From the IMG/VR virus record IMGVR_UViG_3300003663_000001: a stretch of DNA of 38,819 nucleotides; one strand, written 5' to 3'. The notes beneath the pieces are model-generated. The model was not told the origin of the DNA, ran no database searches, and was given only the letters and a program-made list of their open reading frames with translations. Within the stretch, counting starts at the first letter, position 1. Each line of letters opens with the position of its first letter. Shown piece by piece: positions 1 to 18,365 of this stretch. This stretch comes from a virus. The position numbers were made by a program, and so were the translations under genes.

Positions 1-77
1 AGGCGATACAACAGGCAGTACAACAGACGGACAACAGACGGACAACAGACGGTACACAAACAAGAAGAATAAGAAGA
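1..77. repeat. Terminal 77-bp sequence identical to 38743..38819 (circular-assembly overlap or terminal redundancy)
   Basis: Direct comparison: 'aggcgatacaacaggcagtacaacagacgg...aagaagaataagaaga' occurs at both ends. The reading frame of the initiator gene runs cleanly across the junction. Confidence 0.95.
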
Positions 78-1635: not shown

Positions 1636-1637
1636 TC

Positions 1638-1904: not shown

Positions 1905-1926
1905 TGTTTGTTTCTCCAGTATGTGG

Positions 1927-4275
1927 TTATGCGTCAATCGCGCCGAATGCCTTGAAAACTGCGGTGGAGCCAGCTGTTCCGCTGGTAGTACAGACCCAGC
2001 CAATCTTATCGCCGGCAAGGGGATTCGGCGCAACGTATACGTCGCCTCGCACGTAGTCCCCTGACGTAGGAAAAACTACGCCGGGGGCGGTTGAGTAGTT
2101 AACCCGACCAAACATTTTAGCGGTATTGCCGCTACCCAAAATTATGTCACTCATTTTGAGTTTGTGCGGGTATCGTTCGGTGGTGTTCTCCCCGGTGATG
2201 AGTAAAGCTCGCCTAGATGGACTATTGGCAAAATCTAGCACATAGTCGCCGTTTACGAATTTCAATCGCCAGATGTTGCTTTCGCTTGAATGGTTCCACC
2301 CAAGAACTTGCCCGATGCTAGTATTCCCGCCGATAAATGTCGTAATGTCGCCTTTTGTCGTTATCAACGAGTCCAGCTGAGTACCGCCTGAAGAATTAGA
2401 CCTAAGATGGTCGCCAACCATGACCCAGCCAATGGAGCCGCCCAAGACTTGCGTAGGGCCGGAGTCGAATGCGTTGCCGCTCGCGCCGCCTTCCCAGTAA
2501 CATCCAAGGAACACGTTTCTGGCGTTGTCGTTGTCCGCTCGGTAGCCGAAGGCTTGGAAGTAAGTGCCCTCCAGCTTTCCCGCTTCCCACAGCGGAATGG
2601 TGGGGTGAGTGCTTCCCGATCCATATAGAACCCATACAGTGTCGTCTGTACCGGGTACGGTCGCCACTAGCTGCGCTTCTGTTGCGGTCCAGTGTGCGGC
2701 GTAACGGTTGCCCCCGTAGCTTACAAAGGAACTCTGGTCCGCAGCATTGTTACCCGCTGTCGCCACTCCATTAGTGGCAACATGGCAGCCTATGTAAGTA
2801 TTGCCAAGGAACGAGCTGTCAAAGATTCCCGAGCGCCCGTTTCCACTGCAATCAAGCCCAATCGCATAGCCTGAGTTAGCGTCCGCACCATCAACATACA
2901 CCCCGTGTCTGCCGTTGCCGGTAATCCGCATATTAGAGATGGAGAAGTTGTTCGCGTTTCCTTCAACTTCAGCCGTTCCCCTAGATGAGGCGACCACCTG
3001 AATGCCGTTGCCGGGAAATCCATGGACGCGCATGTTGTCAACTACCGCGCGCGCGCGTAGCCAAATTCCGTGGGCGTTGATGTCGGACCCGCCTTGGCTG
3101 ATAACCGAAACGCCGATTATTTTAGAGCCGTCTGCCCGGCCCGAGGGGGTGGCCTCAACGGTGTCGTCTATGGTGTTGTAGCGGTTAACGATGACCCCCC
3201 GCGTATCGGGGGCGAAGATGAGCCGACAGCCTGAAGTGTTTTCGATATGCCCATACATGCCCTCTATGTGGACGATTCGTTTTAGGTTCAGAGTTTTAGA
3301 AAGATAATAGCCTGTATCACGCAGCTTTACCTTCCCCGCGTAGATAATCGTTCCCTCTCCCCGAAAGTCACGGTTAACCGCCGCGTTGATCGCGGCCCAA
3401 TCGTCGGCGGTTCCGTCCCCGACCGCGCCGAAGTCCTCTACCCATACCTCGCTATCATTACTACGAACCCAGCAACCGGTGCCGCCCGCATCGGTTTCGC
3501 CTACGCCGTTAAGAAAATCAGCAAGCCCTGCTTGCGAGCCATCCCACGGAACCGTCGGGCTTATTATGGTGCCGCCGTTGTGGTCGCTCTTGGCGCGGTT
3601 TTCGTCATAAGAGAAAAAGCCCCCACCATTCGGGGCTTCGGTTCTTGGCGCCCAGCCGCCGTGAAAGCTAGTGATGCGAACGGTCGGAACATTGGCTGCC
3701 GGCGTTATTTTCAAAAAGCTCGCAATATCAGGATAGGAAACCTCACCCGACCTGGACATGATCCCCACCCAGGCCTCGCGGAGTGATGCCGTCAATGCCG
3801 TGCCACCCTCAATAGCAGCCGTAACCCTTGTCTTACCCGCAATATAAACCGATTCTGTGACCACCCCATAGAGCACAGCCGAATCCTGCAGCTTCAGTGC
3901 CCGGCCTGGATTGTAAACGCCGGTATGGTTTCCCACGACCTCAAATTGCGTGGCGCTGTACTGCGTGGCAGCCTTTTGCTGAACCCACTCCTGTTGCAAC
4001 TGGCTCGGGTCGCTTACGGGGTCACTCGTCCACACCTCTACATCGTCGGCGTCCTTCACTACAATCTTGTAGCTGCCGTTCAGGTAAATATCGGCATAAC
4101 CGGCGCCATTCAGGATTACCGGGTTCGAGTTCTGAGTTTCGCCACCCTCAGCGGTGAAGGTCGCTTTGGGCGTGTTGGTGCCTGCCTGGTAGGTGTAAAC
4201 CTTGCCGAATGCCAGCGGCTTGCCGGTGTAGCTGTCCCATGCGTAGAACTTGGGACCAATGATTGATACTGCCAT
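1927..4275 (-). CDS. Tailspike / depolymerase with a right-handed beta-helix (pectate-lyase-3-like) domain, 782 aa
   Basis: Phage fibre-type N-terminus 'MAVSIIGPKFYAWDSYTGKPLAFGKVYTYQAGTNTPK'. 'WVEDFGAVGDGTADDWAAINAAVN' is the pectate-lyase-superfamily signature. The body is Gly/Asn-rich. AGGAGAAAA precedes the start. Confidence 0.8.
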   Translation of the reverse strand: MAVSIIGPKFYAWDSYTGKPLAFGKVYTYQAGTNTPKATFTAEGGETQNSNPVILNGAGYADIYLNGSYKIVVKDADDVEVWTSDPVSDPSQLQQEWVQQKAATQYSATQFEVVGNHTGVYNPGRALKLQDSAVLYGVVTESVYIAGKTRVTAAIEGGTALTASLREAWVGIMSRSGEVSYPDIASFLKITPAANVPTVRITSFHGGWAPRTEAPNGGGFFSYDENRAKSDHNGGTIISPTVPWDGSQAGLADFLNGVGETDAGGTGCWVRSNDSEVWVEDFGAVGDGTADDWAAINAAVNRDFRGEGTIIYAGKVKLRDTGYYLSKTLNLKRIVHIEGMYGHIENTSGCRLIFAPDTRGVIVNRYNTIDDTVEATPSGRADGSKIIGVSVISQGGSDINAHGIWLRARAVVDNMRVHGFPGNGIQVVASSRGTAEVEGNANNFSISNMRITGNGRHGVYVDGADANSGYAIGLDCSGNGRSGIFDSSFLGNTYIGCHVATNGVATAGNNAADQSSFVSYGGNRYAAHWTATEAQLVATVPGTDDTVWVLYGSGSTHPTIPLWEAGKLEGTYFQAFGYRADNDNARNVFLGCYWEGGASGNAFDSGPTQVLGGSIGWVMVGDHLRSNSSGGTQLDSLITTKGDITTFIGGNTSIGQVLGWNHSSESNIWRLKFVNGDYVLDFANSPSRRALLITGENTTERYPHKLKMSDIILGSGNTAKMFGRVNYSTAPGVVFPTSGDYVRGDVYVAPNPLAGDKIGWVCTTSGTAGSTAVFKAFGAIDA

Positions 4276-4308: not shown

Positions 4309-7300
4309 CTACGGCATTTCTTCATGTACTTGCTCCAGGGCATCCTTGGCCTGTCGGTAGAACTTCTCAAGAGCCCGGTTTTTCTGCTCATAGTAGCTTT
4401 CTATGGCTGCTTCTTTCTGCTCGGCGGTCATGTTGTCGTTGTACTTGTACGAGGCAATGATTTCCTGCTGATCCTCGAAAGCACTGTCGATCTGGTTAAA
4501 CGCGCCATTTAGACCAATTAGGATCTGGTTTACCTTGTCCCCGGCAAACTCCGGCGCCTTGGACGGATCACGGATGGCTTCACGCTGCAGCATGTTGAAC
4601 GTCTGCTGTGCGGCGGCGGCCTTCACTTTCAGATCCCAATACCCTTCTGTCCATTTTGTACGGTATGGAACCTTCTGGCCAACAAACTGGTGCGTCATGT
4701 AGTCAATTGGCGTACCCCGGTTGAACGGGCGCGGCCCCCAATCGTCTTGTTTCCACAGGGCGGCTTCTGACGCATCGGCAATAATCATCTCCACGTAGCG
4801 TAGGAAGCCCTTGCTGTAGTGTTCTGCCACCAGCGGTGATACCCCCAGGTATTCACCCAGCTTGCGGTACATGATGGGCGTGCGGTCGGTGTACTGGTAT
4901 TCAGCCGGGATATCCATCATGTAATGCGGCACCACGGGCGCACCGGTGAACTTCTCATTGCGCTGAATCTCGATCCAGGGCTGAAGGATGCCGGGATAAT
5001 CCCCGATACCAACGGTGTTCACCAGGGCCCACGCCAGGTGTTCGGATGCTTCTTTGCCGTCCCTGTTCTTCACATAGTCCAGGCCTACTTCCGGCAACGT
5101 GGCAAAGATATGGCCCAGGTCATACGGGCGAGGGATCTTGAACGGCGTATCGGCGCCGGGAATGAAGATCCACCAGAAGCGGGCTTTCTGGTCTGGCGTC
5201 AGCTGCTGGTACCGCTCATCATCCTGGTTCAGCAACCACAAGATCACACTCATCATGGTCAGCACGCTGCCTTTCATCAGGAACACTGCTTTTTTGTCAG
5301 TCAAGCGTGCCAGGTTGGTGCCTTTCATTTCCCCGCGGATCTCGGAAAATTCCCGGGCGGCCTTGTCCAGCCCCTGAATGCCGGCGTTCATAAACGGCAC
5401 GGTGCGTAGGAACTTGGCCCACAGCTCATTGCGGCCCATCTTGCTAAAGTCGGTAGCGATCTCCCGGGCCTCCCAGGCAGCTTCCATTGGTGACGTGCCA
5501 GACTTCACCCCCAGCTCATAATCACCAATGCGCGAACCGTACTCGAAAGCACTGGTGAAGCGATCCCAGCCGGCCAGGAACTTGGCGGCCGCATCCCATC
5601 CGGATTCACTCGGCAGGTCCAGCCGGCGCCGGTCGCGGGTTTCCTGTGTCCGGGCCTCGATCCTGGTGCCGTATCCGCCACCTTGCAGCCTGAAGTCCTT
5701 GTAGGTCTGCGTGTTGAACATGAAGTGAGCCATGCCCCGGAGCGTGCTGTATACCGGGATAAACCGGTTTCGGCTCATAATCGCAGCACTCACGGTATCC
5801 CTGACGGCGTTTGGCCCCAGGAACTGAAACATGCTGGTAACCGTCCGGGTCTGCAGGTTCTTCACTCGATACAGGGCATTCATCACGGCGCCACTGCGCA
5901 GCCCTCTCAGGCCGGTGAGCATGTCCACCAGCAACGGCTCATGCACTTCAAAGTACACCCTCTTGCCATTCACCACGGCGCTGTCCACATAGGTTTCCGT
6001 GGTCTGCGGCTTGTGGCCAAAGGTCCAGAAGCTCAGCAATGCCGGGTTGGCCTCCAGGGCGGCGGCGATATCTTCCACGTCCGTCACCTGTGCGTCCGGA
6101 TCTCCGGCCATAATCATGCCGTCCTTGCTCACGGTTAGCCCCATTTCCGCCATTGCCTCGGCCATCTTGGCGGCCATCTGTGCCTGCTCAACCTGCACCT
6201 TCTTGCTGTCCGGTGCGATCTTCGCGGCAAACAGTGCGCCGTCCTGGCTGTTCATAATGTCGTTGTAGAGCGTTGCCTTGGCACGGGCAATGATAGCGGC
6301 CCGGATATTGGCCTGAAGCCCGTCCACAATGTTCTCGGCAATGTCCCGGGTATTCTGCGTGCCACCAGTCAGGCGCTTGCCGATTTCACTCACGCCCATT
6401 TCGCGGCCGTCCTCGATGCGCTCAATCACCCGGTGGAACGGCACGTAGTTCTGGTTCATCTTCTTGAAGGCTTTGCGCTGGCTCTCGTCAATCAGCCCCA
6501 TCTGCACGTAGAAATCCAGCATCCGGTCATTGAACTTCTGGAACTCGGAAAAGATCTGCGGGAATTCAGGATGCTTCTGCCCCAGGGCAAGGCCGGCGTC
6601 GATCTCCTGGTCGGTGAACAGGTTTTCCCGGCCCTGCTTCTTCAGCTCCTGGCCACGGCGGGCCTTGAAATACTCCATCAGATCATCGAACCGGCGCCAC
6701 CCGTGTTTGGTGGCCGGCTTGAACACTTCTTCCAGCCCCTTGCCGCTGAACTCAAAGTAGCCATCATCGGTCAGGCGCGGCGTGCCATCCTGAATCACGG
6801 CCTCATGCACGGATTCAGCTCCGTTCACCATCTGGAATTGCTTATACGGGCTCACGGTGGCCTCGCCAACTTCGCCTTTCAGCGTGCGCTCCACCACCTT
6901 GGCGGCATGGATCTTGTCAATTACCTGCTGGCGGTACCGCTCCAACGGATAGCTGTTCTGGTATTCCAGGATCTGCTGGCTGGCGGTCAGCTCACGGCCA
7001 GACTTGGCCCGCAATTGCGCCCGTGGCCCCTGCAGATACCAGCGGTGCATTTCGTCCTGCAGGCGCTTCATCTTGCGATCCAGCACGGCGTCATCTTTCA
7101 TCACCTGTTCAAACCGCTGCGTGAACAGTGGCGCCCTGGCCTTGGCCTCGCTGTAGTTGGTCAGCCACAGGCGGACAAACTCGGCAAAACCTTCCTTCGC
7201 CTTCAGGTTCTTCTTGCTGGTGTAGCTCAACGCCTCCACTTCCTTGCGGTATTTGCTGTCCTTGTACTCCCGGGTAAACCGCTTGTTGTAGCGGTAGTGC

Positions 7301-10300
7301 ATATCCAGGTAGTGCGCCATTTCGTGCGCCATCACCTCTACATCGTCGTAGTTCTTCACCCGCACTTCGCTGTTGTTGCTGCGGTAGAAGCCCAGCTTTG
7401 ACTTGCCCCGGACCTTGCCGAAGTAGATACGTTTGCCGATCAGATCCTGCAGCATGAACCGGATACCCTCACGGCGGGTCGGCTTTTCCTCCGGCTTCAG
7501 GGTCACGGTACGGTCACCCAAGGTAAAGCGGCCATTGTCCGGGCGCCGTGGCACGCCTGTCATGCTGTACGGCGGCTGCCACTGCGGCATAGGCACATCG
7601 GCACCCATATCGCTCATCATGGCGCTGGTGGCGTCCTGGTTGGTGGCGTCCTGGTCCTTCTTGGGCTGTAGCTCGGCAATCACCAACTGGTGGCGGGCCT
7701 TCACCTTGGACAATTCCTCGGCCTGGTCCCACTCCTGCACTTGTTCTTCCAGCTTCGGCAGATCCCTTTCGGCCTGCTTCACCCGGGCGGCCTGCTGTTT
7801 GGCCTCGGCGTCGATGGCTGAAATGGTATTGGTCACCCGGCGTGCCAGGCCGGTGGCGTCTGCACTGCCGATATCCTTGATATCCACCTGGTGCTCCATG
7901 GCGCCGTCCAAGGTCAGCACAAACCGTGTGCCAGTGACGTTATCCAGGGTCATGCTAAAGCCGGCATAGCTGCCGATAGCCTTGGATTCGGTGCCGGCGT
8001 CTGACATTTTCGCGGCTTCCGCCAGGATCTCCTGGCCGGCGTCCTTGTGCTTGTCGAACGTCTGGCCATTCACGGTGATAGTGAAGTCCTTGGGCGCGGC
8101 CTTAGCCTTCTTCACGTCCTGCGCGTACTTCAGCAAGCGATCCTTGCCCCGCTCCACAATGGATTTTTCGCGGCGGATGGCGTCACGGATCCGGAACTGT
8201 TCGCGGTCGTGTTCTTCCTCGGCCTGTTCCAGCTTTCGCAGTTTCTGGCGAAGGTCCATTTCTTCCAGGATCAGCGGATTGCCACTGGATGCCGCTTTCA
8301 TCTCGGCGGCGTTGGCCGATTCTGCCCCCAAGTCCTCGATCTCGCGCTGTTTGGTGTTGCCCTTGCGCACCTGCTCGATAAACCGGGCCTTGGTTTCAAT
8401 GGTCTGCCACATGCGGCTGTCCAGCGTCTGCTTGGTGGCGTAGCGGTTGATCTCGATTTCAAAGCCATCCGGGTCACGGTCGTACAGCTCGTTACCCTGG
8501 CGGATAATCCGGCCCTCCCGCTGTTCCAGGTCTGACGGCCTCCACGGTGCGTCCATGTGGTGGAGCCCCACCAGGCGGGTCTGCACGTTCATGCCGGCGC
8601 CCATCTTGGCGGTGGAGCCCATCAGCACGCGAACACGGCCTGTGCGCACCTTGGCGAACAACTCAGCCTTCTGTAGCTCGGTGTTGGCGTCATGGATATA
8701 GGCCACTTCCGATTCCGGAATGCCCAGGTTAATCAGCTTCTGGCGCAAGTCGTCATACACACTGAAATCACCATCCAGGGCTTCCAGCTCGTCCGGGCTC
8801 ATTCGGTCCAGCTGTTCGCTGGCGGCCTCGTCGCCATCTTCGGCACGCTGGATCAGGTCACGAATGCGGTTGGCTTCCTGCGCCTTGGCGCCCTTGGGCG
8901 TACTTAGGTCGATGAATACCAGCTGCGCACCCTTGTCGTCGCTCCACTGGTCGTACAGGGCTTTAATCCGGCTGGCGGCCTCATTGATCTTGCTGTCCGG
9001 GTTGTCGGCGTACAGTGCCGGGTCGATCAGGCGCATATCCAGGGCGGCCTTCCGGGCATCGCTCATAATCTTGAGCATGTTGTCGGCGCCCTTTTCAGGC
9101 TTCTTCGGCAGGTGTTCAGCACGCCATACCAGTGAGCCCTTCGGATAAACCTCGTTGCCCCGCTCATCCTGCACGGGCACACCAATGTAGTCGGCCTGGT
9201 CCTCGCTGCGCTCCACTACAATGTTGTTGGGCTTCCCGCCTTTGATCTTCGGTACCGGCAGGCGCTTGCCCTGTGCCGCCAGCTGCTTGTTGATATCGTC
9301 GCGGTTTACCACGTCACCAAAGGTCAGGTACCGCTGCATCAGCTCGGGCAGGTTCACGAACTTGCTGAAACGGCTATTCAGCTTGTAGCTTCCGGTTGGT
9401 GACAGCTCCCAATCGGTGACCACTTCCCCGTACATGCTGGCCCAGGCGTCGAAGTGTGCAATGCCCTGGTCCTGCAGGGTCTGGTAATCCAGGAACCGCT
9501 GCATGGTATACATTTCGGCCATGGTGTTGCTGATTGGCGTGCCGGTGGCGAAAACCACGTTGTTGCCGCCAGTGCGCTCCAGGATGGATTGCACCTTCAT
9601 AAACATATCGGCGGCCTTCTGGCTGCCCTGCGGGTTACCCAGGCCGGCAACGCGGGTCATGCTGGTGGCAAATCCCAGGTTCTTGAACTCATGGGCTTCA
9701 TCCAGGAACAGGGCATCCACACCCAATTCACCAAATGTCAGGTTGTCGTCCTTGTTCTCGGCATCGAACAGGCGCTTGAGCCTTTCCTGCAGGCGCTCTT
9801 TTTGCTTCTCGATCTGTTTGATGGAGCGTGCGCCCTTGCCCTCCTGGTCGCGGATAGTGGAAATAGCGGTGTCGATATCCCGGATCTGCTGGTTGATGAA
9901 CCGCTCTTGGAACTCGGCATCCATTTCGACCTTGCCAAACGAGGAATGCGCCACAATCACGGCGTCCCAATCGCCGGTGGCAATCCTGGCGAACAGGCGC
10001 TTGCGGTTGCCCTTCTCAAAGTCTTTTTTGGTGGCGGCCAGAATGTTGGCGTTCGGGTACAGCTTGGTGAAGTCCTCGGCCCACTGGCCCACAAGGTGAT
10101 TCGGTACCACAAACATGGGCTTCTTGGCGCGGCCTGTCCGGCGTAGCTCCATGGCCCCGGCAATCATAGTGAAGGTTTTGCCGGCGCCCACAACGTGATC
10201 CAGCAACGTGGTACCGCTCTGCACAATCCGCCAGGCGGCGTTGGCCTGGTGCGGCCGCAACTTCACAATGTCGTCACCCACCTTGCCCGGGAACGTCAGG

Positions 10301-13300
10301 TGTGAACCGTCATACTCCCGCACCCGGTCGGTGTTGAAGGTATCGTTATAGAGCCTGGTCAGGCGAACACGGCGGGCATCGTCTTTCCAGATCCAGCGGC
10401 GGAACTCGGCCTTTACTCGCTGGATCTTCTCGTTGGCGGCGTTGGTGGCGGATTCGTTGATAACGGTGGTGCTTTCGTCCACTCGATCACGAATCACAAT
10501 GCTCTTGTCGTTTGCCGCGGCGGTCAGGATATCGCTCACCTGCGCACGGTCGGTACCGTATTGGCTTTCAGCGGCGGTGGTCGGGCTGCCTTTGATGTTC
10601 CACTTGGCCATTACCGGGTTGTAGGTTGCCTTGCCGTTGGCGTTACCCAGGATATGGTCGGCAAACTCGGTCACCACTTCCGGTGGCAACCAGTGGGCGC
10701 CAGGCTTCACCCGGATATCGACGGCTTCAATGTCCTCCGGCTGCACGTCCTTCAGGGCCTGCACGTTGCGCTCAAAGCGCGGCATATCCTTGGCCATGCG
10801 CTCGGCCATTGCCAGCTTCTGCTTCACGTTGCCAGACAGGTATTCGTCGCGGGATTCCCAATTATTGGGCGTACTCTCGAAAACCAGGTCGCCAAGCTCG
10901 GCCACAATGGCGCTTTCCGTCTTGCCGTACAGCTGGCTCATGTACTCCATATCCACCCGGCCCTTTTCGGACAGGCTGGCGGTCAGTGCGTCCTTGGCAG
11001 TGGTGGCCTTTTCCGGTGCCTTGTAAGGCTGCTGTGTCCGGGTCCGGAAGATGGCGGCCTTCTCGGCACTCGGCTTGCGCGGGGTTTCCCCGGTGCGCTT
11101 CGCTACGGTCGGGCTGATCCCCTTGTCAAAGGATTCTTCCAGGGCGGCCAGCTGCGGCCAGGTTGGATCATCCCGGAACAGTCGCTTGTTGGCATCCAGG
11201 TTGATGGGTCCGTTCTTCTTTACGAACTGGTCATACACCCGGTTGAGTCGGTCACGCAGTGCGCCCAGGGCCTCATCCTTCACGTTCTCGGTCAGCTGCG
11301 CCTTACGCAAATCCGCGAACACGTCACGGACCTTAATCAGACCACGCACCCGTTCTTCGGCCTTTTTGCTCGGCATTTCCACGGGCTCAGACCGGGCCTG
11401 CCCCATTTCGCTTTCCAGTCGGATGCTGATCTGGTCGCCATCCAGGAACATGCTGCCCACCTTCACGTTCTCCACGCTGGTCGGCAGGGTTACTTCCTCG
11501 GATACCGGCTCAGTGGTGGCGGCGTCCATAAAGTCTTTCGGCAGGCTGGCCATGGCTTCCTGCAGTAGCGCGTTGGTGTCCTGCCCCTGCCTTGCCACCA
11601 GGGCGGGCTCATTCGGCCCGTACATCGAACCGTAGGCGCCCCATTCACCCAGCATCATTCCCGGATTGCGGTCGAAGTATTCATTCAAGGGAACGTCGAT
11701 ACCATTGGCATCCTTCACGGTGTTGACCACGGACCAGGATTCACCAGACGGCTGCTCACCTTCCCGGCGCTTACGCAGAAAAATGATATCGGTGGTGACT
11801 TCGGTACCGGCGTTCTTCAGGAATGCGTTGTTGGGCAGTCTCACGGCGCCCAGCAAATCGGCACGCTCGGCCAGGTAATCACGCGCCATCTTGTTGTTGC
11901 CGTCCATCAGGCGGCTCGATACCACCATGGCCAGCACGCCATTGGGCTTCAGTCCGGCCATAGACTTGGCGAAGAAGTAATTGTGAATGCTCATTTTCGA
12001 CAAGGCTTTACGCTTGCCGTCATACAGCTTCTGGTTACCAAACGGCGGGTTGCCAATGGCCAGGTCAAAATAGCCATCCGGCATGTTGAACTCTTGGAAT
12101 CCCATCGGTGCCTGAATGTTGGCACCAGGGTACAGCTTCTGTGCAATGCCCCCGGTGATATGGTCCAGCTCCACCCCGGCAATGCTGCTCTTGGATCTCA
12201 CGCCACCCGGCATGAATCCCAGGAAGTTGCCGGTACCAACGGACGGCTCCAGCACGCGGCCACCCTGAAAGCCCATGTTCTTCACGGCCTTCCAGATCTC
12301 GGTGACGATCTCCGGGCTGGTGTAGTGGGCATCCTGCGTACTGCGGCGGGCTGCATCGTATTCCGCTTCGGTCAATGCTTCCTGCAGCTGCTTGGCTTCC
12401 TTCTCCCAGCCTTTGGTTATCTTGCCACGGTCACCTACAAACGCTTGAGGCAGGCCACCCCAGCCCACATACCCGGCCAGGATCTGTTGTTCCTCCGGTG
12501 TGGCCTGGCGGCCTTCCTCGTTCAGTTGCTTCAGGGTCTGGATAGCTTTCAGGTTGTTCTTGAACTTGGTTTTGGCTCCGCCAGCACCAATGTTCATTTC
12601 CGGCGTCAGTGTGAAGAACTTGGCCGGCCTGTCGCCTGCTGGCTCTGATCTCTGCGTTGTTGCGCCTTTTGGCGTTGGCGCCTTCTTTGCCGCTTTTTCT
12701 GTCGCATCTACGCTTCCCTCAGATCCTCGGGTTGCGGGCTGTCCGCTTCCAGCGTCCTGCTCATCGTCTGCAGGGCGTCGCTCAGTATCGCGGGCCCGTT
12801 GCCCTCCGGCTTGTCGTTCTCCGGTTCCCCCGGTGGAAACAGGTACCTCTCCCTCGCCATCTGAAACGCCTCGTCCGGCTGGTACCCCGCTTCCTCCAGC
12901 TGACTCACCTGCTGGTACGTCTGTTCCGCTGCCTGTTTCAGCATCGGTTCCAGTGTCCCCTGCTTCTTCAGGCTCTGATACAGCTTCGGCCTGTTCTCCT
13001 GCCAGTGGCTTCTGGCCTGGTTGATCCAGTTCTGTAGGTTCATCTTTCGTTACCCTTTCGGTGGCGGATTTGATTTGTTCAGCTTCCGGAACAAAATAAA
13101 GGCTTCCATCCTTTCCGCTGACAATTACGCCGTCGTGGTCGCCATCTTCCATTCGATCAATGATCTTGTCAGTATTTTGGTCGAAATAGTTCGTCTCATT
13201 GGAGTCAACACTAATAACCAAAGGGTTCTGCATGGACAGGTATGCTTCAATAACGCGAGGCGAGTCGCCGGCCCTCTGGTTCCCGTCATTATCTTCCGGC

Positions 13301-15588
13301 TCAGTGTAAAACTCCGCATCTTCCCGGTCAGAATGGAAGTGAGCACCCCTCAATCCTTCTTCGGTGTACGGGGTGTTCTCGCCGGTTCGATCCATGTCGA
13401 ACGTGTCGAAGTCCTGACGGGTGCCGTGATAAACCACCAACGGATCGCCGTTTTCGTCCACCACTTTGCTGTCGCCAAACCAACGGTCAAAGTCATTTAC
13501 CGGCTCTGATCGCTCGGCAGTATCACCCTGAGCACCTTGGTTCCCGGTGGCAGGCTGGCCAGAAACCCCGGTGTCACCTCCGGACCTTGTGACGCCTGGC
13601 GGCGTTTCGCCCCGGCCGGTCAGATCATCCTCAAGCAACGCCTGGCGCATTTCATCCTGTGTCATTTCATCGACACGGCGGCGGGTTTGGGTGTCTTGCC
13701 TGCGCTCTACGTTGGCTGTTTCCTGATAAGTGCGCTTCAGCCTGGCAATAGACTGCCGGCCAATTTCCGGCTTCATACTACGGTGTGTTTCCAGCGGCAC
13801 GCCTTCCGCCACTTTCTCGATACGGTTACCCTGTCGCGGGCTGAACTCCAGCGGCTTTCCTGCCGGCGTTGTCATAATGGTGTAGGCGCCGTTTGGCGTT
13901 ACTTCTGCGTACACGTCCAGGGTTTCGGGCGCACCCTCTGCCGCGTCAGGTTCCGGCTCCGTTGCCGGTGCATCAAGGTCCGACAGCCGCTGGCGGGCTT
14001 CCTCGGTCGGCATATCCCACAACTGCGCATCATCCACACCCGCTTCCCGCAACTGGTTACGTTCAAACGGTGTCAGATCATCAGCGGCCTGCCCGGTTTC
14101 CTGTTCTGCTTCTGGCTCAGGCTCTGGCCGGTCGGATTCCTCTGGCGGTTCCTCCACGGCTGGCGGCCTGCTGGCGATCAGCGGCACGTTGACGTTACCG
14201 GGCATTTCACCCTGGCGCGGCGCGATATCAATGCCTCGTTCCTTCAGCTTTTGCGCTACCAGGTCACCCATGGTCGGGCGCTCCGGTGCCCGTACCTGTT
14301 CCATCTGTGCCTGTGAAGGGTCCAGGGCTGCGGTGGCGGCCTGGTCTGCCGGCCCAAATTCGGCGGCTCTGGCCTGGCGGTTGATCTCTCGTGCAACCTG
14401 GCGCTCTGGTCCACCCTTGGCAGCTGCGCTGGCGGTACCGGCTGCGGTGCCATAGGTTCCGCCAGCAACGAAACCAGCAAGGCCTCGGTCAGCGGCTTCG
14501 GAAAAACTCATCGCGGCATCGGTACCAAAACGCTCACCAACGTATTCGACCACACCTTCCTGGAACAGCTCGGTTGTGGCTTCTTTCGCGCCAGCCCCGG
14601 CGCCACCAGCTGCTACCCGGGCAAGTCCATTTCTCATGGCCAGTTTGCCAACGGATTCAGCCCCGGCCTTTGTGATCCCCTTCGCACCATAACGCTCCAA
14701 TATGGCAGAGCCTAGGGCGAACGGCGCGGCTTGCAGCACGTCAGTCAGTTCAGCCTTTTCCTTGCCCTTGTTCTTCGCTCGGACCTCACCCATTTCACCA
14801 GAACGGGCAATCACATATCCGGGCAGTGACATGGTAACCGCCACCATATCCGGAATGGATTTTATGCCCTGCTCAAAACCGTACTGCAGAACTTCACCCC
14901 AGGCAGATCCAGACAGCGGCCCGTTCTGGCTGAATTCAAACTTCACCTGCTCCCAGGTGTTATCCGGCACATAACCGGCGTCTAGGTTCTTCAGGTTTTC
15001 GGCGGCAACGTCCAGGGCCTCAGTGCCACCTTGCGCCTTATACTCGGCGTATTCCTTGCCATTCAGGTATTTCGGTACCAGTCCGTCATCCCATACAAAG
15101 CCTCCCATGGAAAAGGCTTCTTCCCCGGCCTCAGCCCCGGCATTGATGGCGGTCAGTACGCCACCACCAAGATCACCTACACGCTCGGCGGCACCACGGG
15201 CGGCGTTGTAGTCCTGCACTTCTTCCCATGATCCAGTGGCGCCCCTGGTTGGCTCTGGTGGTAGTTCATAGCTTCCGGTGGCCCCATTGGGTCCGGATTG
15301 CTCGATCTGTGCAGGCTGTGTCTGCTCAGGCTTAATAGGCGGGAATGTACGTCCGGCGTTAGAGTTATTCGGAGTGCCTGCCTCCGCTGAATCCTTCGTC
15401 CTGTCGCTACCAGAAAACCATTGAAACCAGCTATCTCCTTCAGGCTCTTTGGCTTGCTCCTGGTTGTCGCCATATAGCTCGTTGTGCCAGCTGGCCAGCT
15501 CTCTTGCACCCTCGGTATCTCCTGCCAGGTGCGCCTTCTCAAGCGCGTTTAGTAACTGATCCTTGGAAGGCTGCTGGTTCTCGCTCAT
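4309..15588 (-). CDS. Giant multidomain (polyvalent, DarB-like) virion-module protein, 3759 aa: ART-like + N6-adenine MTase + SF2 helicase + HExxH metallopeptidase + long uncharacterised C-terminus
   Basis: Uninterrupted ORF. Start placed at the ATG at 15588 ('MSENQQ', GAGG upstream, 7 nt after the upstream stop) rather than at 15657. Domain motifs are listed as separate features. It lies between the internal-protein candidates and the tailspike. Confidence 0.85.
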   Translation of the reverse strand: MSENQQPSKDQLLNALEKAHLAGDTEGARELASWHNELYGDNQEQAKEPEGDSWFQWFSGSDRTKDSAEAGTPNNSNAGRTFPPIKPEQTQPAQIEQSGPNGATGSYELPPEPTRGATGSWEEVQDYNAARGAAERVGDLGGGVLTAINAGAEAGEEAFSMGGFVWDDGLVPKYLNGKEYAEYKAQGGTEALDVAAENLKNLDAGYVPDNTWEQVKFEFSQNGPLSGSAWGEVLQYGFEQGIKSIPDMVAVTMSLPGYVIARSGEMGEVRAKNKGKEKAELTDVLQAAPFALGSAILERYGAKGITKAGAESVGKLAMRNGLARVAAGGAGAGAKEATTELFQEGVVEYVGERFGTDAAMSFSEAADRGLAGFVAGGTYGTAAGTASAAAKGGPERQVAREINRQARAAEFGPADQAATAALDPSQAQMEQVRAPERPTMGDLVAQKLKERGIDIAPRQGEMPGNVNVPLIASRPPAVEEPPEESDRPEPEPEAEQETGQAADDLTPFERNQLREAGVDDAQLWDMPTEEARQRLSDLDAPATEPEPDAAEGAPETLDVYAEVTPNGAYTIMTTPAGKPLEFSPRQGNRIEKVAEGVPLETHRSMKPEIGRQSIARLKRTYQETANVERRQDTQTRRRVDEMTQDEMRQALLEDDLTGRGETPPGVTRSGGDTGVSGQPATGNQGAQGDTAERSEPVNDFDRWFGDSKVVDENGDPLVVYHGTRQDFDTFDMDRTGENTPYTEEGLRGAHFHSDREDAEFYTEPEDNDGNQRAGDSPRVIEAYLSMQNPLVISVDSNETNYFDQNTDKIIDRMEDGDHDGVIVSGKDGSLYFVPEAEQIKSATERVTKDEPTELDQPGQKPLAGEQAEAVSEPEEAGDTGTDAETGSGTDVPAGESAGGSGVPAGRGVSDGEGEVPVSTGGTGERQAGGQRARDTERRPADDEQDAGSGQPATRGSEGSVDATEKAAKKAPTPKGATTQRSEPAGDRPAKFFTLTPEMNIGAGGAKTKFKNNLKAIQTLKQLNEEGRQATPEEQQILAGYVGWGGLPQAFVGDRGKITKGWEKEAKQLQEALTEAEYDAARRSTQDAHYTSPEIVTEIWKAVKNMGFQGGRVLEPSVGTGNFLGFMPGGVRSKSSIAGVELDHITGGIAQKLYPGANIQAPMGFQEFNMPDGYFDLAIGNPPFGNQKLYDGKRKALSKMSIHNYFFAKSMAGLKPNGVLAMVVSSRLMDGNNKMARDYLAERADLLGAVRLPNNAFLKNAGTEVTTDIIFLRKRREGEQPSGESWSVVNTVKDANGIDVPLNEYFDRNPGMMLGEWGAYGSMYGPNEPALVARQGQDTNALLQEAMASLPKDFMDAATTEPVSEEVTLPTSVENVKVGSMFLDGDQISIRLESEMGQARSEPVEMPSKKAEERVRGLIKVRDVFADLRKAQLTENVKDEALGALRDRLNRVYDQFVKKNGPINLDANKRLFRDDPTWPQLAALEESFDKGISPTVAKRTGETPRKPSAEKAAIFRTRTQQPYKAPEKATTAKDALTASLSEKGRVDMEYMSQLYGKTESAIVAELGDLVFESTPNNWESRDEYLSGNVKQKLAMAERMAKDMPRFERNVQALKDVQPEDIEAVDIRVKPGAHWLPPEVVTEFADHILGNANGKATYNPVMAKWNIKGSPTTAAESQYGTDRAQVSDILTAAANDKSIVIRDRVDESTTVINESATNAANEKIQRVKAEFRRWIWKDDARRVRLTRLYNDTFNTDRVREYDGSHLTFPGKVGDDIVKLRPHQANAAWRIVQSGTTLLDHVVGAGKTFTMIAGAMELRRTGRAKKPMFVVPNHLVGQWAEDFTKLYPNANILAATKKDFEKGNRKRLFARIATGDWDAVIVAHSSFGKVEMDAEFQERFINQQIRDIDTAISTIRDQEGKGARSIKQIEKQKERLQERLKRLFDAENKDDNLTFGELGVDALFLDEAHEFKNLGFATSMTRVAGLGNPQGSQKAADMFMKVQSILERTGGNNVVFATGTPISNTMAEMYTMQRFLDYQTLQDQGIAHFDAWASMYGEVVTDWELSPTGSYKLNSRFSKFVNLPELMQRYLTFGDVVNRDDINKQLAAQGKRLPVPKIKGGKPNNIVVERSEDQADYIGVPVQDERGNEVYPKGSLVWRAEHLPKKPEKGADNMLKIMSDARKAALDMRLIDPALYADNPDSKINEAASRIKALYDQWSDDKGAQLVFIDLSTPKGAKAQEANRIRDLIQRAEDGDEAASEQLDRMSPDELEALDGDFSVYDDLRQKLINLGIPESEVAYIHDANTELQKAELFAKVRTGRVRVLMGSTAKMGAGMNVQTRLVGLHHMDAPWRPSDLEQREGRIIRQGNELYDRDPDGFEIEINRYATKQTLDSRMWQTIETKARFIEQVRKGNTKQREIEDLGAESANAAEMKAASSGNPLILEEMDLRQKLRKLEQAEEEHDREQFRIRDAIRREKSIVERGKDRLLKYAQDVKKAKAAPKDFTITVNGQTFDKHKDAGQEILAEAAKMSDAGTESKAIGSYAGFSMTLDNVTGTRFVLTLDGAMEHQVDIKDIGSADATGLARRVTNTISAIDAEAKQQAARVKQAERDLPKLEEQVQEWDQAEELSKVKARHQLVIAELQPKKDQDATNQDATSAMMSDMGADVPMPQWQPPYSMTGVPRRPDNGRFTLGDRTVTLKPEEKPTRREGIRFMLQDLIGKRIYFGKVRGKSKLGFYRSNNSEVRVKNYDDVEVMAHEMAHYLDMHYRYNKRFTREYKDSKYRKEVEALSYTSKKNLKAKEGFAEFVRLWLTNYSEAKARAPLFTQRFEQVMKDDAVLDRKMKRLQDEMHRWYLQGPRAQLRAKSGRELTASQQILEYQNSYPLERYRQQVIDKIHAAKVVERTLKGEVGEATVSPYKQFQMVNGAESVHEAVIQDGTPRLTDDGYFEFSGKGLEEVFKPATKHGWRRFDDLMEYFKARRGQELKKQGRENLFTDQEIDAGLALGQKHPEFPQIFSEFQKFNDRMLDFYVQMGLIDESQRKAFKKMNQNYVPFHRVIERIEDGREMGVSEIGKRLTGGTQNTRDIAENIVDGLQANIRAAIIARAKATLYNDIMNSQDGALFAAKIAPDSKKVQVEQAQMAAKMAEAMAEMGLTVSKDGMIMAGDPDAQVTDVEDIAAALEANPALLSFWTFGHKPQTTETYVDSAVVNGKRVYFEVHEPLLVDMLTGLRGLRSGAVMNALYRVKNLQTRTVTSMFQFLGPNAVRDTVSAAIMSRNRFIPVYSTLRGMAHFMFNTQTYKDFRLQGGGYGTRIEARTQETRDRRRLDLPSESGWDAAAKFLAGWDRFTSAFEYGSRIGDYELGVKSGTSPMEAAWEAREIATDFSKMGRNELWAKFLRTVPFMNAGIQGLDKAAREFSEIRGEMKGTNLARLTDKKAVFLMKGSVLTMMSVILWLLNQDDERYQQLTPDQKARFWWIFIPGADTPFKIPRPYDLGHIFATLPEVGLDYVKNRDGKEASEHLAWALVNTVGIGDYPGILQPWIEIQRNEKFTGAPVVPHYMMDIPAEYQYTDRTPIMYRKLGEYLGVSPLVAEHYSKGFLRYVEMIIADASEAALWKQDDWGPRPFNRGTPIDYMTHQFVGQKVPYRTKWTEGYWDLKVKAAAAQQTFNMLQREAIRDPSKAPEFAGDKVNQILIGLNGAFNQIDSAFEDQQEIIASYKYNDNMTAEQKEAAIESYYEQKNRALEKFYRQAKDALEQVHEEMP
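7100..7450 (-). other. Zincin-like metallopeptidase motif region of the giant protein
   Basis: 'VEVMAHEMAHYLDMH', with HEMAH at 7312-7326. The domain limits are approximate. Confidence 0.5.
8480..10262 (-). other. Superfamily-2 (SNF2/DEAD-like) helicase domain of the giant protein
   Basis: Walker A 'VGAGKTFT' (10174-10188), motif II 'LDEAHEFKN' (DEAH at 9691-9702) and motif VI 'QREGRIIRQGN' (8491-8523). Confidence 0.8.
11640..12625 (-). other. N6-adenine DNA methyltransferase domain of the giant protein
   Basis: SAM motif I 'VLEPSVGTGNFLGF' (12223-12249) and catalytic motif IV 'IGNPPFG' (12037-12051). It is preceded by 'LAGYVGWGGLPQAF', typical of methylase-helicase fusion proteins. Confidence 0.8.
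12708..13043 (-). CDS. Candidate overlapping ORF (111 aa) in the +1 frame of the giant gene, confined to its low-complexity linker
   Basis: ATG at 13043, preceded by AAGGG 9 nt upstream and by an in-frame TAA 9 nt upstream; TAG stop at 12708. The translation looks helical and globular ('MNLQNWINQARSHWQENRPKLYQSLKKQGTLEPMLKQAAEQTYQQVSQLEEAGYQPDEAFQMARERYLFPP'). Hand-counted GC3 is 92/111 here, against 43/111 for the giant frame over the same bases. Confidence 0.35.
   Translation of the reverse strand: MNLQNWINQARSHWQENRPKLYQSLKKQGTLEPMLKQAAEQTYQQVSQLEEAGYQPDEAFQMARERYLFPPGEPENDKPEGNGPAILSDALQTMSRTLEADSPQPEDLREA
13066..13500 (-). other. ADP-ribosyltransferase-like domain of the polyvalent-protein type (tentative)
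   Basis: 'FDRWFGDSKVVDENGDPLVVYHGTRQDFDTFD...GAHFHSDREDAEFYT...VIEAYLSMQNPLVI' matches my recollection of the 'WFGDSKVVDxxGxPLVVYHGT' signature of ART-like modules in large phage and plasmid proteins. Confidence 0.4.
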
Positions 15589-15595
15589 TGCTACC

Positions 15596-16480
15596 TCACT
15601 GGCTATACATTTTGAGTAGTTCGTTGCGGTCCATGGTACCGCCCTGACCAAGATCACGCACGCTGATTCCCAGCTGGCGGGCGGCTTGTGTTACCGCTGC
15701 TGAACGTGTTTCAGCCTGGCCTTGTGAGTATAGCTGTGCGGCACGGGTTGTAATGGCCTGCACCTTGGAACGGTTTTCCGGGTTCAGATTTTGCAGGTTG
15801 CCCTGCTGGTCGAAGATCCCACCCAGCAATTCGGCTGCCTGGCGGAACATCAGGCTTTCATCGGATGATTTGAAGTCGCTACCAGATCCGCCAGCCTGCG
15901 CTTTCAGCAAGGCATTGCTGGTGGTGGACTCGATCATCTGACCATCTTTGTAAAGCCGGTCCTCGCCACCAAAGGTGATCTTCTCCGGGTTTTTCAGCAT
16001 GTCGTCCAGCTCACGGGCCCGCGCAAGCCCCATCTGCACAAAGTTGGGGTCATATTCTTCGGGCATGTTCGCGGCGACCTCCGGCGCCAGGTTCTGGCGG
16101 GCACGCTGGTACCGCTGCGCCTGTTCCTCTGGCGTGCCACCCTGCAGGATAAAGGTGCTCACCCGGCCCAGGGTTTCCACATTTTGTTCCATCTGTTTGC
16201 GTTGGCGCTCGTCCATGTTCTTGAACGCTTCCTGCACTTGCGTAGCTTCTTCCGGCGCGAACGCAATCAGCTCACGCTCTGCCTGCTTAGCATCCGGGCC
16301 ACCTGCCGCCATCCGGGAACGCAAGCTGTTCAGTGTCTGGCCACGCTGGCGGGCTTGATCGCGGTCCTCTTTCTTCCAGTCCAGTGCCAGGGCATTGGCC
16401 TTGCGCTGCTGGCGGGAGCCCTTTACCGCTTCCGTGGTGCGGTAGACTTCACCCATATCAATGCCAAACTGATTAGCCAT
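15596..16480 (-). CDS. Hypothetical virion-module protein (internal/ejection protein candidate), 294 aa
   Basis: ORF track. The assignment rests on its position directly upstream of the giant gene. The sequence is helical and Gln/Ala/Arg-rich, and I recognise no motif. Confidence 0.5.
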   Translation of the reverse strand: MANQFGIDMGEVYRTTEAVKGSRQQRKANALALDWKKEDRDQARQRGQTLNSLRSRMAAGGPDAKQAERELIAFAPEEATQVQEAFKNMDERQRKQMEQNVETLGRVSTFILQGGTPEEQAQRYQRARQNLAPEVAANMPEEYDPNFVQMGLARARELDDMLKNPEKITFGGEDRLYKDGQMIESTTSNALLKAQAGGSGSDFKSSDESLMFRQAAELLGGIFDQQGNLQNLNPENRSKVQAITTRAAQLYSQGQAETRSAAVTQAARQLGISVRDLGQGGTMDRNELLKMYSQ

Positions 16481-16489
16481 ATCGGCCCC

Positions 16490-17200
16490 CTATCCTAGTG
16501 CGTTGTATAGCAGGAAGTTTTGCGCACCCTGATTTAATGATTGCGCTGTCCCCTGGTATGCGCTGGCCCTGGCGTTTCCCTGGTTTATTGCACCTTGTGC
16601 CAATGCGTTACCTGTGGCCTGCGTTGCCTGAGTAACATTATTGGCCATGTTGGTCCGGGCATCCTGGTCTGCCTGGTTGGCTACCTGGCCCACGTTTGCC
16701 AGTGTTGCCAGCCTGTTAAATCGTGCGTTTTTGTTGCTGGCATCCAGTTGGTATTCGGTTGCTGCTCGATTAAATGCGTTGCCATATTCCTGACTGGCAA
16801 GGTCTGATCCGTACCGTGTCACGGCGCGGGCCTGAGCTCCAGATTGAAGCCGGCCCCGAGCTGATGCGCTGGCATCCAATGCGTTAATCCCTTCCTGCTT
16901 GCGGAATTGGTATCCAGGGTCAGCCTTGAATTGAAAATTGAAGTCTCCGGTGTTGAAATCGCCAGATTCTACCCCTGCCCTAAGTTCTTTCAGGGATTCT
17001 GCGCCAATCTCACGCCATGGCGCATTATCCTCACGCTGCTGATCGAAAACCTCTTTCTGAAATTCGATTGTTTCACGATTGGCCTGCACCTTCGCATCAG
17101 ATGCCTGCCCGGCTGCCTTGGCCTGCTTATCGGCTCCTTTGCTCGCTGCATAGGCGCCAACTACGGCGCTGCCCGCTATGGCTGTTGCTACTCCTGACAT
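16490..17200 (-). CDS. Hypothetical virion-module protein (internal protein candidate), 236 aa
   Basis: Start moved to the ATG at 17200 with a perfect AGGAGG 6 nt upstream. It has a Gly/Ala-rich hydrophobic N-terminus 'MSGVATAIAGSAVVGAYAA' followed by Gln/Asn/Ala-rich repeats. Confidence 0.55.
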   Translation of the reverse strand: MSGVATAIAGSAVVGAYAASKGADKQAKAAGQASDAKVQANRETIEFQKEVFDQQREDNAPWREIGAESLKELRAGVESGDFNTGDFNFQFKADPGYQFRKQEGINALDASASARGRLQSGAQARAVTRYGSDLASQEYGNAFNRAATEYQLDASNKNARFNRLATLANVGQVANQADQDARTNMANNVTQATQATGNALAQGAINQGNARASAYQGTAQSLNQGAQNFLLYNALG

Positions 17201-18018
17201 AACGCCTCCTGAATACTCTGCAGTGTCAGCCCATAGTGTGTGGTGATCTCGTCGCCCATGTTGATCTTCCTGGTGGCCACGGCCCACACACTGTTATCTT
17301 CCGCCAGCTCCATAACCGCGTTCGGGTTGGCGCTGTGATTGGAATACCGGCCTATGATAGTGCGGCCACCATCGGCAGTCCTTGCCGGCCCAACAACCTC
17401 GCCAATCTCAAAATCCCGGCAGGCTTTCAGGCCATTGCCATGGATATAGGACAGCGCCACGGTCACACATTCGCTGTATGGCTGCTTCAGTTCTACCCGG
17501 TCGCTCTCGTTCTGAACCTGCGCCTGTACCTGGTCCTCGGTGATGCCGGCCATTTCCAGCACGGCCAGGTAACTGGCATGGTCACGCTGGCGCACGTAAT
17601 CCCGGTATTGCTCCATGGAAAAGAACGTCAGCCGGTCCACCATATCGCCTTCGTGGTAATGGTCGGTGCGGTGTACCGTGATCCAGCGGGTATCCTCAAA
17701 AGCATATCCGGCCCGCTTGCGCCCTGGTGGCGCTTCCATGATGTTGGCGCCTGTCATGCGCCTTGTGCCTTGTGGTGTAGCAACAGCAATATCACCGGAA
17801 AGCATGATATCCAGGTAGCCTTCTTTGTAGACGCGGCCAGTCATCAGCGTGCCCTTGGGAATAACAATCTCCCGTGCATACATGCCGTTAATGAATCGCT
17901 CCTGTACCGGGATCTCAACCTGCGGCTGGTCCAGCATGAAGTGCTCCATGGATTCAATGTGCTCGGTCGTCTTGCCGGCCAGGACGTAATGCACTTCTTC
18001 TTCGGTCAAAAGATCCAT
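17188..18018 (-). CDS. SET-domain protein (putative protein-lysine methyltransferase) with an uncharacterised N-terminal half, 276 aa
   Basis: Start at the ATG at 18018 (ATGA overlap with the upstream stop). C-terminal SET signatures: 'GNGLKACRDFEIGEVVG', 'RYSNHSANPNA' (17320-17340) and 'INMGDEITTHYG' (17230-17256). Confidence 0.7.
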   Translation of the reverse strand: MDLLTEEEVHYVLAGKTTEHIESMEHFMLDQPQVEIPVQERFINGMYAREIVIPKGTLMTGRVYKEGYLDIMLSGDIAVATPQGTRRMTGANIMEAPPGRKRAGYAFEDTRWITVHRTDHYHEGDMVDRLTFFSMEQYRDYVRQRDHASYLAVLEMAGITEDQVQAQVQNESDRVELKQPYSECVTVALSYIHGNGLKACRDFEIGEVVGPARTADGGRTIIGRYSNHSANPNAVMELAEDNSVWAVATRKINMGDEITTHYGLTLQSIQEALCQE

Positions 18019-18356: not shown

Positions 18357-18365
18357 GGCGTTACC

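Follow-up and report, generated by a model that had tools for sequence, protein, structure and literature searches.

What kind of protein takes up 29.1% of a 38,742-bp phage genome, and what could it do during infection? The question is raised by the IMG/VR virus record IMGVR_UViG_3300003663_000001, a stretch of 38,819 nucleotides (nt) that we analysed whole and call the window. One minus-strand gene in it encodes a polypeptide of 3759 amino acids (aa), here called the giant. An earlier reading made from the letters alone (the original prediction) took the giant for a polyvalent protein that is packaged and ejected with the DNA. Our analysis indicates that the giant is probably both a phage-type polyvalent protein and the largest, last-encoded ejection protein of a P22-like podophage, with anti-restriction and host-modifying cargo on board. 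We rate each single activity below this overall picture.

The open reading frame (ORF) listing of the window showed a reading frame unbroken from its first GTG, at 15657, down to 4309 on the minus strand. Translation from the ATG at 15588, which comes just after the stop codon of the preceding gene (TGA, 15596-15598) and has GAGG as a ribosome-binding site 8 nt before it, yields a 3759-aa protein with no internal stops (417.9 kDa, isoelectric point 5.3). We rejected the GTG at 15657 as the start: a gene beginning there would overlap the preceding one and, unlike the ATG, would have no such ribosome-binding site. Positions 1..77 and 38743..38819 form an exact 77-bp direct repeat, which indicates that the window is a complete, circularly closed genome of 38,742 bp. 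The single 11.3-kb ORF and its share of about 29% of the genome, as first described, are borne out by the ORF listing and the closed length. The repeat region holds three tandem copies of ACAACAGACGG. The contig comes from a metagenome, where so long an ORF might be an assembly or annotation artefact that fuses several genes. We regard the chance of this as negligible: the exact protein sequence is present on 4 contigs from two independent collections (JGI/IMG and Logan), the cultured Vibrio phage VvAW1 has a collinear 3640-aa ORF, and homologues of 2,000-4,475 aa number in the hundreds.

The giant combines several biochemically unrelated domains in one polypeptide. Pfam matches, counted only above gathering/curated cut-offs, identified ART-PolyVal (PF18760; aa 711-845, E 1e-21, 78.6 bits versus a cut-off of 31.2), an Eco57I-type N6-adenine methyltransferase (MTase; aa 1163-1246), ResIII/SNF2 (aa 1775-1970), Helicase_C (aa 2292-2365) and LPD38 (PF18857; E 2e-34, 119.7 bits versus a cut-off of 27; Table 1). 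PHROG 10089, 'DarB-like antirestriction', matched aa 805-2680 at E=0. The original prediction had named an ADP-ribosyltransferase (ART), an N6-MTase and a superfamily 2 (SF2) helicase and had suggested a Pfam check; the three calls were right, PHROG agrees with them, and every motif lies where it had been placed. The sequences of motifs I and IV (MTase) and of motifs I, II and VI (helicase) were canonical and intact. In the ART domain, the strand-1 His of VVYHGT (His721) was invariant in 11/11 aligned sequences, and the strand-5 Asp of H-D-G-V-I-V aligned with the YDG[VI] motif of most homologues. All matches from PADLOC and NCBIfam (MTase, DrmD and PLD-helicase) were partial and generic and fell far short of the cut-offs, on which ground we rejected the giant as a captured BREX/DISARM component.

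We queried sequence collections with the last 1070 residues of the giant, which lie in its C-terminal module (C-module). Homologues of the C-module were found in 231 phage records, 104 metagenomic proteins and 76 loci in diderm bacterial genomes. The bacterial loci came from an alignment-based contig scan; a single-sequence scan returned nothing. Several of the 76 loci lie inside chromosome-sized contigs and are probably prophages. Identity was 71% to VvAW1, 37-38% to BA3-like Vibrio, Thalassomonas and Shewanella podophages, and ~25% to Shiga toxin (Stx) phages, PTXU04, Pelagibacter podophages and others. The domains ahead of the C-module vary among these proteins and include ART-PolyVal, GGDEF, SLT, lysozyme, DdrB-ParB, PBECR nucleases, InPase and methyltransferases. 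The original prediction had listed the residues beyond the HEMAH motif as about 1000 further ones. Its count was correct, with 1000 residues after HEMAH, but they belong to the most conserved part of the protein.

The opposite end of the giant holds a second conserved module (N-module). We observed 45-50% identity for it in BA3-like phages, and an exhaustive HMMER search placed it in 514 protein clusters. It lay near the N-terminus in all 150 matches listed, in proteins of up to 4,475 aa. A word-indexed search had returned only 4 matches, probably because of low-complexity words, and HMMER was used instead. The AlphaFold (AF2) model of the N-module was poor, with a predicted local distance difference test score (pLDDT) of 49, and comparison of its alignment with P22 gp16 and gp20 by hhalign was insignificant. 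Since no Pfam family covers it, the N-module merits a new 'LPD'-type domain definition. Thirteen giant proteins with an N-module carried Sno-type helicases, InPase, MTases, SLT, GGDEF, RadC, GNAT, PBECR5 and various LPDs; in 8 of the 13, LPD38 stood at the end.

Between these ends the content changes while the ends persist. In P0002, a protein from a syntenic contig, we observed the N-module, the ART domain and a C-module 62% identical to that of the giant, without the MTase-helicase. Three close relatives from syntenic genomes (P0002, P0005 and P0006) have a chassis that is 60-63% identical and lack the whole MTase-helicase dyad. In Vibrio phage 41E34.2, p13 carries the same ends around a different small methylase. 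This BA3-like phage of Vibrio crassostreae (L003) encodes the 2668-aa version at 11719..19725, with an MTS-type methyltransferase at aa 1412-1506 and ~900 residues without annotation between the N-module and the methylase. Among ~290 retrieved relatives compared by blastp, 35 had N-module and C-module, 3 had N-module, MTase, helicase and C-module, and none had the full order of N-module, ART, MTase, helicase and C-module. This order is a recombination of known parts. Low-complexity linkers, acidic or rich in Gly/Pro/Ser/Thr (aa 441-700 and 849-1002), set the cargo domains apart. The giant is a conserved chassis, made of the N-module and the C-module, with swappable cargo between them.

The position of the gene points to the virion. 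The morphogenesis operon is P22-type and runs from terminase, portal, scaffold, P22-type coat protein, gp4-like adaptor and gp10-like protein through three small proteins to a 265-aa ORF, a 294-aa protein, the giant and a 782-aa tail fibre/spike. The 265-aa ORF belongs to phrog_598, a family on which P22 gp7 itself scores 2e-95. The giant is thus encoded among late/virion genes, after a gp7-family ejection gene and before the tail spike. The gp7 homologue upstream and the spike downstream place it in the slot of P22 gp16, the last ejection protein; that the gene sits between internal-protein candidates and the tailspike had been read correctly from the sequence.

The composition of the giant agrees with this slot. 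We observed no cysteine (Cys) in its 3759 residues, compared to an average of 0.97% Cys in the phage's other minus-strand proteins (P ~1e-16). Zero Cys was also found in the homologues VvAW1 gp01 (3640 aa), 41E34.2 p13 (2668 aa), Bcep22 gp75 (4602 aa) and PTXU04 gp25 (2197 aa), in all proven podovirus ejection proteins that we checked (N4 gp50/gp51/gp52, T7 gp15/gp16 and P22 gp7/gp20/gp16), and in the two proteins upstream of the giant (gp7-family and 294-aa). Replication enzymes, portals, terminases and spikes of the same phages contain 0.5-2.3% Cys. C-module homologues had 13 Cys in 156,950 residues and N-module homologues 42 in 277,639. The simplest explanation is selection against disulfides while (partly) unfolded chains cross the oxidising periplasm. 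Zero Cys in podovirus ejection proteins may be a general composition rule. No earlier statement that ejection proteins lack Cys was found in the literature searched, which is weak evidence of novelty. P1 Sit and Bcep22 gp74 and gp70 have zero Cys too.

Relatives of the giant have been found in virions. JC1 gp69 (4515 aa, DarB-like) was detected in virions purified on caesium chloride (CsCl) with 51 peptides and the second-highest score. In phi24B, gp47 (2811 aa; LPD5, LPD1, LPD38 and a metallopeptidase) is a plentiful component of the virion proteome that cryo-electron microscopy does not show; the authors of the phi24B preprint propose it as an ejection protein. Knock-down of PTXU04 gp25, which carries LPD38, by CRISPRi-ART abolishes efficient infection. 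The claim that the giant is packaged and ejected is therefore supported indirectly, by the gp16 slot, by homologues in virions (JC1 gp69 and phi24B gp47) and by the absence of Cys.

From these data we infer a course of events in which the giant would be synthesised late and then packaged in the capsid. It would exit domain by domain through the ~35 Å tail/ejectosome channel, as has been proposed for the N4 virion RNA polymerase (vRNAP; 3500 aa), whose beads-on-a-string architecture is suggested by the authors of the N4 work to permit such passage. The absence of Cys would guard against disulfide trapping during transit of the oxidising periplasm. The chassis, with the hydrophobic helix at aa 3435-3453 (VFLMKGSVLTMMSVILWLL, the sole strongly hydrophobic 19-residue stretch of the protein), could engage the envelope and help to build or anchor a trans-envelope conduit, while the cargo would enter the cytoplasm along with the leading DNA. 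There the translocase-coupled methylase may, like P1 DarB, protect the entering genome from restriction by modifying or shielding it in cis, and the ART may modify host proteins; the zincin could possibly cut the beads apart. Because the C-module is the most conserved part and a homologue is needed in PTXU04, the giant may be essential for ejection instead of being an accessory effector that the phage can dispense with, and a knockout may simply be dead. The knockout phenotype, on which the original prediction had relied for refutation, would then be confounded as a test of counter-defence.

Proteins of this kind have a published framework. Phage-type polyvalent proteins were defined by Iyer et al. 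(Iyer, Burroughs, Anand, de Souza and Aravind, 2017; J Bacteriol 199:e00245-17), and we refer here to selected passages of that paper. These describe, all encoded among late genes, an H-Y-D clade ART, a dyad of adenine MTase and SWI2/SNF2 ATPase, a zincin metallopeptidase (MPTase) hub in which an Asp three residues after HExxH marks a widespread phage-type clade, and LPD38 in phage-type members only. They already predict an injected, multi-target effector for the class. The giant belongs to the phage-type polyvalent proteins. The remark in the original prediction that large polyvalent proteins had been described is accurate, and its reading is essentially the published hypothesis for the class; the idea is thus not new. 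The passages referred to contain no N-module, no fixed N-/C-chassis with a central cargo slot, no gp16-slot synteny and no Cys avoidance. The chassis/cargo dissection, the gp16-slot placement and the Cys-free signature are new here.

The nearest isolate homologue is VvAW1 gp01 (YP_007518343, 3640 aa, RefSeq 'DarB-like antirestriction'). The VvAW1 genome (38,682 bp) has the same size, gene order and gene position, and gp01 is 73% identical over aa 849-3758, which comprise MTase, helicase and the C-module with LPD38. An ART-PolyVal domain is missing from gp01, and little of its first ~730 residues is related to the giant, although the first 63 aa of the leader of the giant are 59% identical to gp01; outside gp01 the VvAW1 genome gives no megablast match. 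Bcep22 gp75 (4602 aa, Lessievirus) matches PHROG 10089 and is 34% identical over aa 1003-2647 (1,645 residues, the dyad); blastp found no similarity to it in the N-module or C-module. JC1 gp69 (Lessievirus) is the last gene of its virion module. Bcep22 and JC1 differ from the phage studied here in capsid/tail lineage (933W-like). PTXU04 gp25 (2197 aa, Escherichia coli phage) is 26% identical over aa 2878-3613 (Foldseek E 2e-36, template modelling score 0.66), and Stx phages (phi24B gp47 class) match aa ~3207-3581. The N-terminal parts of PTXU04 gp25 and phi24B gp47 differ from that of the giant (LPD5/LPD1 or unannotated), with no ART and no DarB dyad. N4 vRNAP gp50, T7 gp16 and P22 gp16 are each the largest, last ejection protein, combine delivery with an enzymatic domain and have zero Cys; instead of anti-defence enzymes they carry an RNA polymerase or a transglycosylase.

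P1 DarB (2255 aa) has a collinear MTase and SF2 helicase dyad, which aligned with the giant in three ordered high-scoring segment pairs (E 2e-21 to 1e-7). The analogy to DarB drawn in the original prediction therefore holds at sequence level, with three collinear segments in P1 DarB and the 34% identity to Bcep22 gp75. DarB is head-internal and virion-borne and acts in cis on incoming DNA against type I restriction. DarB lacks ART, HExxH chassis and LPD38, and it needs DarA/Hdf/DdrA/Ulx for incorporation. When P1 DarA, DdrA, DdrB, Hdf and Ulx were used as tblastn queries, no homologue of any of them was found in the window at E<=0.01. Since these partners are absent, packaging cannot follow the P1 route, and the protein's own end modules are candidates for capsid incorporation. 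The giant is DarB-like in its central dyad, but with the Dar partners absent and a different delivery context it is not a strict member of the DarB system.

Several observations weigh against the giant as an ejected carrier of anti-restriction and host-modifying enzymes. Direct virion and infection data come from relatives only. Searches by hhalign, tblastn, Foldseek and against the PDB found no similarity to P22 gp16/gp20, T7 gp15/16 or N4 gp51/52, and the label of ejection protein rests for that reason on position, composition and homologues. The P22 scaffold gp8 is also Cys-free, which shows that proteins other than ejected ones can lack Cys. With no more than 22-32% identity to P1 DarB, function may not transfer; moreover, the 9 Cys of P1 DarB and its delivery by a myovirus with a contractile tail stand against zero Cys and a podophage here. 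The ART strand-2 residue is His (GAHFHSD), not the canonical Tyr of the clade. Among 11 aligned members this position held Y in 5, H in 3, F in 2 and W in 1; the His is an aromatic/imidazole substitution within the range of the family. The HExxH region had no significant Pfam match and no significant PDB sequence or profile match, and hhalign of the C-module profile to the N4 vRNAP MPTase region and to the P1 DdrB C-terminus was insignificant.

The HExxH region nevertheless carries a conserved pattern. We observed that H2755, E2756, H2759 and D2762 (HEMAHYLD) and E2799/E2803 (EGFAEFVR) are at least 90% conserved across 30 homologues. D2762 is the Asp three residues past HExxH and fits the phage-type MPTase clade in the passages of Iyer et al. 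(2017). The AF2 model of the C-module (pLDDT 74, predicted template modelling score 0.61) starts with a helix, three strands and then the HExxH helix, which is the zincin arrangement; the remainder is mostly helical. Foldseek matched this model to 73 predicted viral structures at E <= 1e-3. Against the PDB it found nothing under E 0.1, with a best probability of 0.75, and a diverged T7 gp15/gp16-like or P22 E-protein fold for the chassis was dropped on this negative result. A sequence search of the PDB with the whole giant gave no match, and a profile search with the C-module alignment gave noise only. The HExxH domain is probably a zincin-like peptidase.

What such a peptidase would cut bears on the role of the giant. 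The domain might attack the cell wall or host proteins during penetration instead of processing the giant itself. A role of this kind is suggested for gp47 by the phi24B preprint authors, Iyer et al. (2017) list an effector role as an alternative in the passages referred to, and the domain lies within the conserved chassis, not between cargo beads. Zincins cut peptide bonds, however, and family members have dedicated SLT or lysozyme domains for glycan strands; we regard attack on the envelope or host proteins as doubtful. N4 vRNAP, which bears an analogous MPTase domain, is packaged unprocessed; for the HExxH domain of the giant, autoprocessing and attack are both conjectural roles.

The dyad could also serve entry itself. 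The SWI2/SNF2 translocase might be mainly a motor for genome internalisation, anchored through the chassis at the inner membrane, with methylation secondary and anti-restriction not the main role. Podoviruses need an energy-dependent step for DNA internalisation, according to a review; a role of this kind has been proposed for T7 gp16 (ratcheting) and N4 vRNAP (driven entry), and here a dsDNA translocase-type ATPase sits in the terminal ejection protein, whose chassis homologue is required for efficient infection in PTXU04. Yet PTXU04 gp25 has no confident annotation besides LPD38, and the relatives P0002, P0005 and P0006 lack the whole dyad, which indicates that the translocase is dispensable for DNA entry in this lineage. 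In addition, a translocase strictly coupled to an adenine methylase is the signature of DarB. We consider a primary motor role unlikely.

Nor do the data fit well with a giant that stays in the producing cell. Orphan self-protection methylases are common in phages, and the best PADLOC match was 'orphan methyltransferase', as might be expected if the giant were an unpackaged, late cytoplasmic enzyme that methylates progeny DNA and owed its place in the virion module to chance. Such an enzyme would have no need for the 2,000 extra residues of N- and C-modules that accompany unrelated cargo, nor for total Cys avoidance in the cytoplasm, and homologues are physically present in virions; this makes a purely cytoplasmic role very unlikely. 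It is likewise highly improbable that the enzymatic domains are decayed passengers of a purely structural ejection or conduit component. The non-canonical ART strand-2 residue would agree with decay, and no activity has been shown for any LPD38-class protein. Every MTase and helicase catalytic motif is intact, however, and the giant is 73% identical to VvAW1 gp01 over ~2,900 residues while the rest of the two genomes has no megablast match, which indicates that the dyad is under purifying selection.

Table 1. Features of the giant and of neighbouring genes, in window coordinates.
Feature	Residues (aa)	Nucleotides	Strand	Remarks
Giant polyvalent protein, whole coding sequence	1-3759	4309..15588	-	3759 aa, zero Cys; stop codon 4309-4311
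Leader, low-complexity, acidic	1-119	15232..15588	-	Gly/Ala/Pro/Ser/Thr-rich
N-module	~120-440	14269..15231	-	Conserved; Gly/Ala-rich, long helices predicted; Pfam covers none
Linker 1	441-700	13489..14268	-	Acidic, Pro-rich; not conserved among relatives
ART-PolyVal ADP-ribosyltransferase cargo domain (predicted)	701-848	13045..13488	-	Pfam and motifs
WFGDSKVVD	703-711	13456-13482	-	ART-like signature
VVYHGT	718-723		-	ART; holds putative catalytic His721
Linker 2	849-1002	12583..13044	-	Low complexity: 56% Gly/Ala/Pro/Ser/Thr, 9% hydrophobic
N6-adenine DNA MTase of DarB dyad (predicted)	1003-1400	11389..12582	-	Pfam, PHROG, motifs I and IV
VLEPSVGTGNF	1112-1122	12223-12255	-	MTase motif I
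NPPF	1180-1183	12040-12051	-	MTase motif IV
MTase-helicase inter-domain region	1401-1770	10279..11388	-	Conserved with VvAW1 gp01 and Bcep22 gp75
SWI2/SNF2-type SF2 ATPase (predicted)	1771-2400	8389..10278	-	Pfam, motifs I, II and VI
GAGKT	1801-1805	10174-10188	-	Helicase motif I
DEAH	1963-1966	9691-9702	-	Helicase motif II
QREGRI (within QREGRIIRQG)	2356-2361	8506-8523	-	Helicase motif VI
Charged post-helicase region	2401-2663	7600..8388	-	In cargo block common to VvAW1 gp01 and Bcep22 gp75
C-module (chassis)	2664-3759	4312..7599	-	Conserved in homologue searches
Predicted zincin-like metallopeptidase	~2700-2830	7099..7491	-	HEMAHYLD and EGFAEFVR conservation; model
HEMAH	2755-2759	7312-7326	-	HExxH; followed by exactly 1000 residues
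Hydrophobic stretch VFLMKGSVLTMMSVILWLL	3435-3453	5230..5286	-	Directly before LPD38; candidate membrane-inserting helix
LPD38 (PF18857)	3457-3613	4750..5220	-	Pfam
P22 gp7-family ejection protein (phrog_598)		16490..17200	-	Likely start ATG 17200; zero Cys
294-aa protein (phrog_36852), P22 gp20 position		15596..16480	-	Zero Cys; presumed ejection protein
782-aa tail fibre/spike, P22 gp9 position		1927..4275	-	Weak pectate-lyase-like match; downstream of the giant

The genome is that of a P22-like podophage, a short-tailed marine phage. Megablast against 50,697 phage records gave matches only within the giant gene, the best of them to VvAW1 (73% nucleotide identity over 4.9 kb), with smaller ones to Pseudomonas phage Itty13, Erwinia phages Pavtok and Stean and a Microcystis phage; the remaining 23 kb of the window had no match among these records. 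Where they align in the C-module, the giant and A0A516M277, a viral entry in UniProt, share 98% identity. The 90%-identity cluster of the capsid gene (21366..22628, minus strand) includes QDP60304.1 and WP_272975718.1, the latter labelled Alcanivorax jadensis, and on the basis of that label Alcanivorax is a plausible host.

The ejection-protein block also holds an ORF of 297 aa (17188..18081, minus strand), which lies two genes upstream of the giant. Residues 22-161 of this ORF match VvAW1 gp04 (PHA00672 / 'tail fiber adhesin' PHROGs) at 64% identity, and it has an additional C-terminal SET domain (PF00856, 35 bits versus a cut-off of 22.4) that VvAW1 gp04 does not have. A protein of its cluster at >=90% identity bears the NCBI name 'SET domain-containing protein-lysine N-methyltransferase [Alcanivorax jadensis]'. 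The ORF encodes 6 Cys, in contrast to its ejection-protein neighbours, and may be a second cargo fusion of the virion module. The sole clear plus-strand genes of the window are 333..1043 (lambda P-like replication, PF06992, E 5e-29) and 913..1635 (DUF1367, E 7e-43). As listed they overlap by ~130 nt, and one of the two starts is probably wrong.

In many small podophage genomes, giant polyvalent proteins account for between a fifth and a third of the length, yet no LPD38-class member has a demonstrated mechanism. The giant described here is compact and cleanly dissectable, with two conserved end modules and two cargos with intact motifs, and among natural relatives one or the other cargo is missing. 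It helps to separate the questions of how DNA enters (chassis), how defences are defeated (dyad and ART) and how 418 kDa is threaded through a ~35 Å channel. The absence of Cys offers a cheap, testable marker of injected proteins and a design rule for phage protein delivery. We propose tentatively, with somewhat less than even confidence, that short-tailed phages of diderm bacteria possess a generic vehicle for protein delivery, formed by the N-module and the HExxH/LPD38 C-module, and that any insert between these modules travels by way of the tail and the periplasm to the cytoplasm, with near-total Cys exclusion as the signature of this route. If so, Cys exclusion would act even inside methylase, helicase and other normally Cys-containing folds, ejected phage proteins could be predicted simply from their Cys depletion, and enzymes of choice could be injected into bacteria by engineering the natural site that the central slot provides. 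Among marine and prophage-borne podoviruses, the arms race seems to have a hot spot in this swappable cargo slot.

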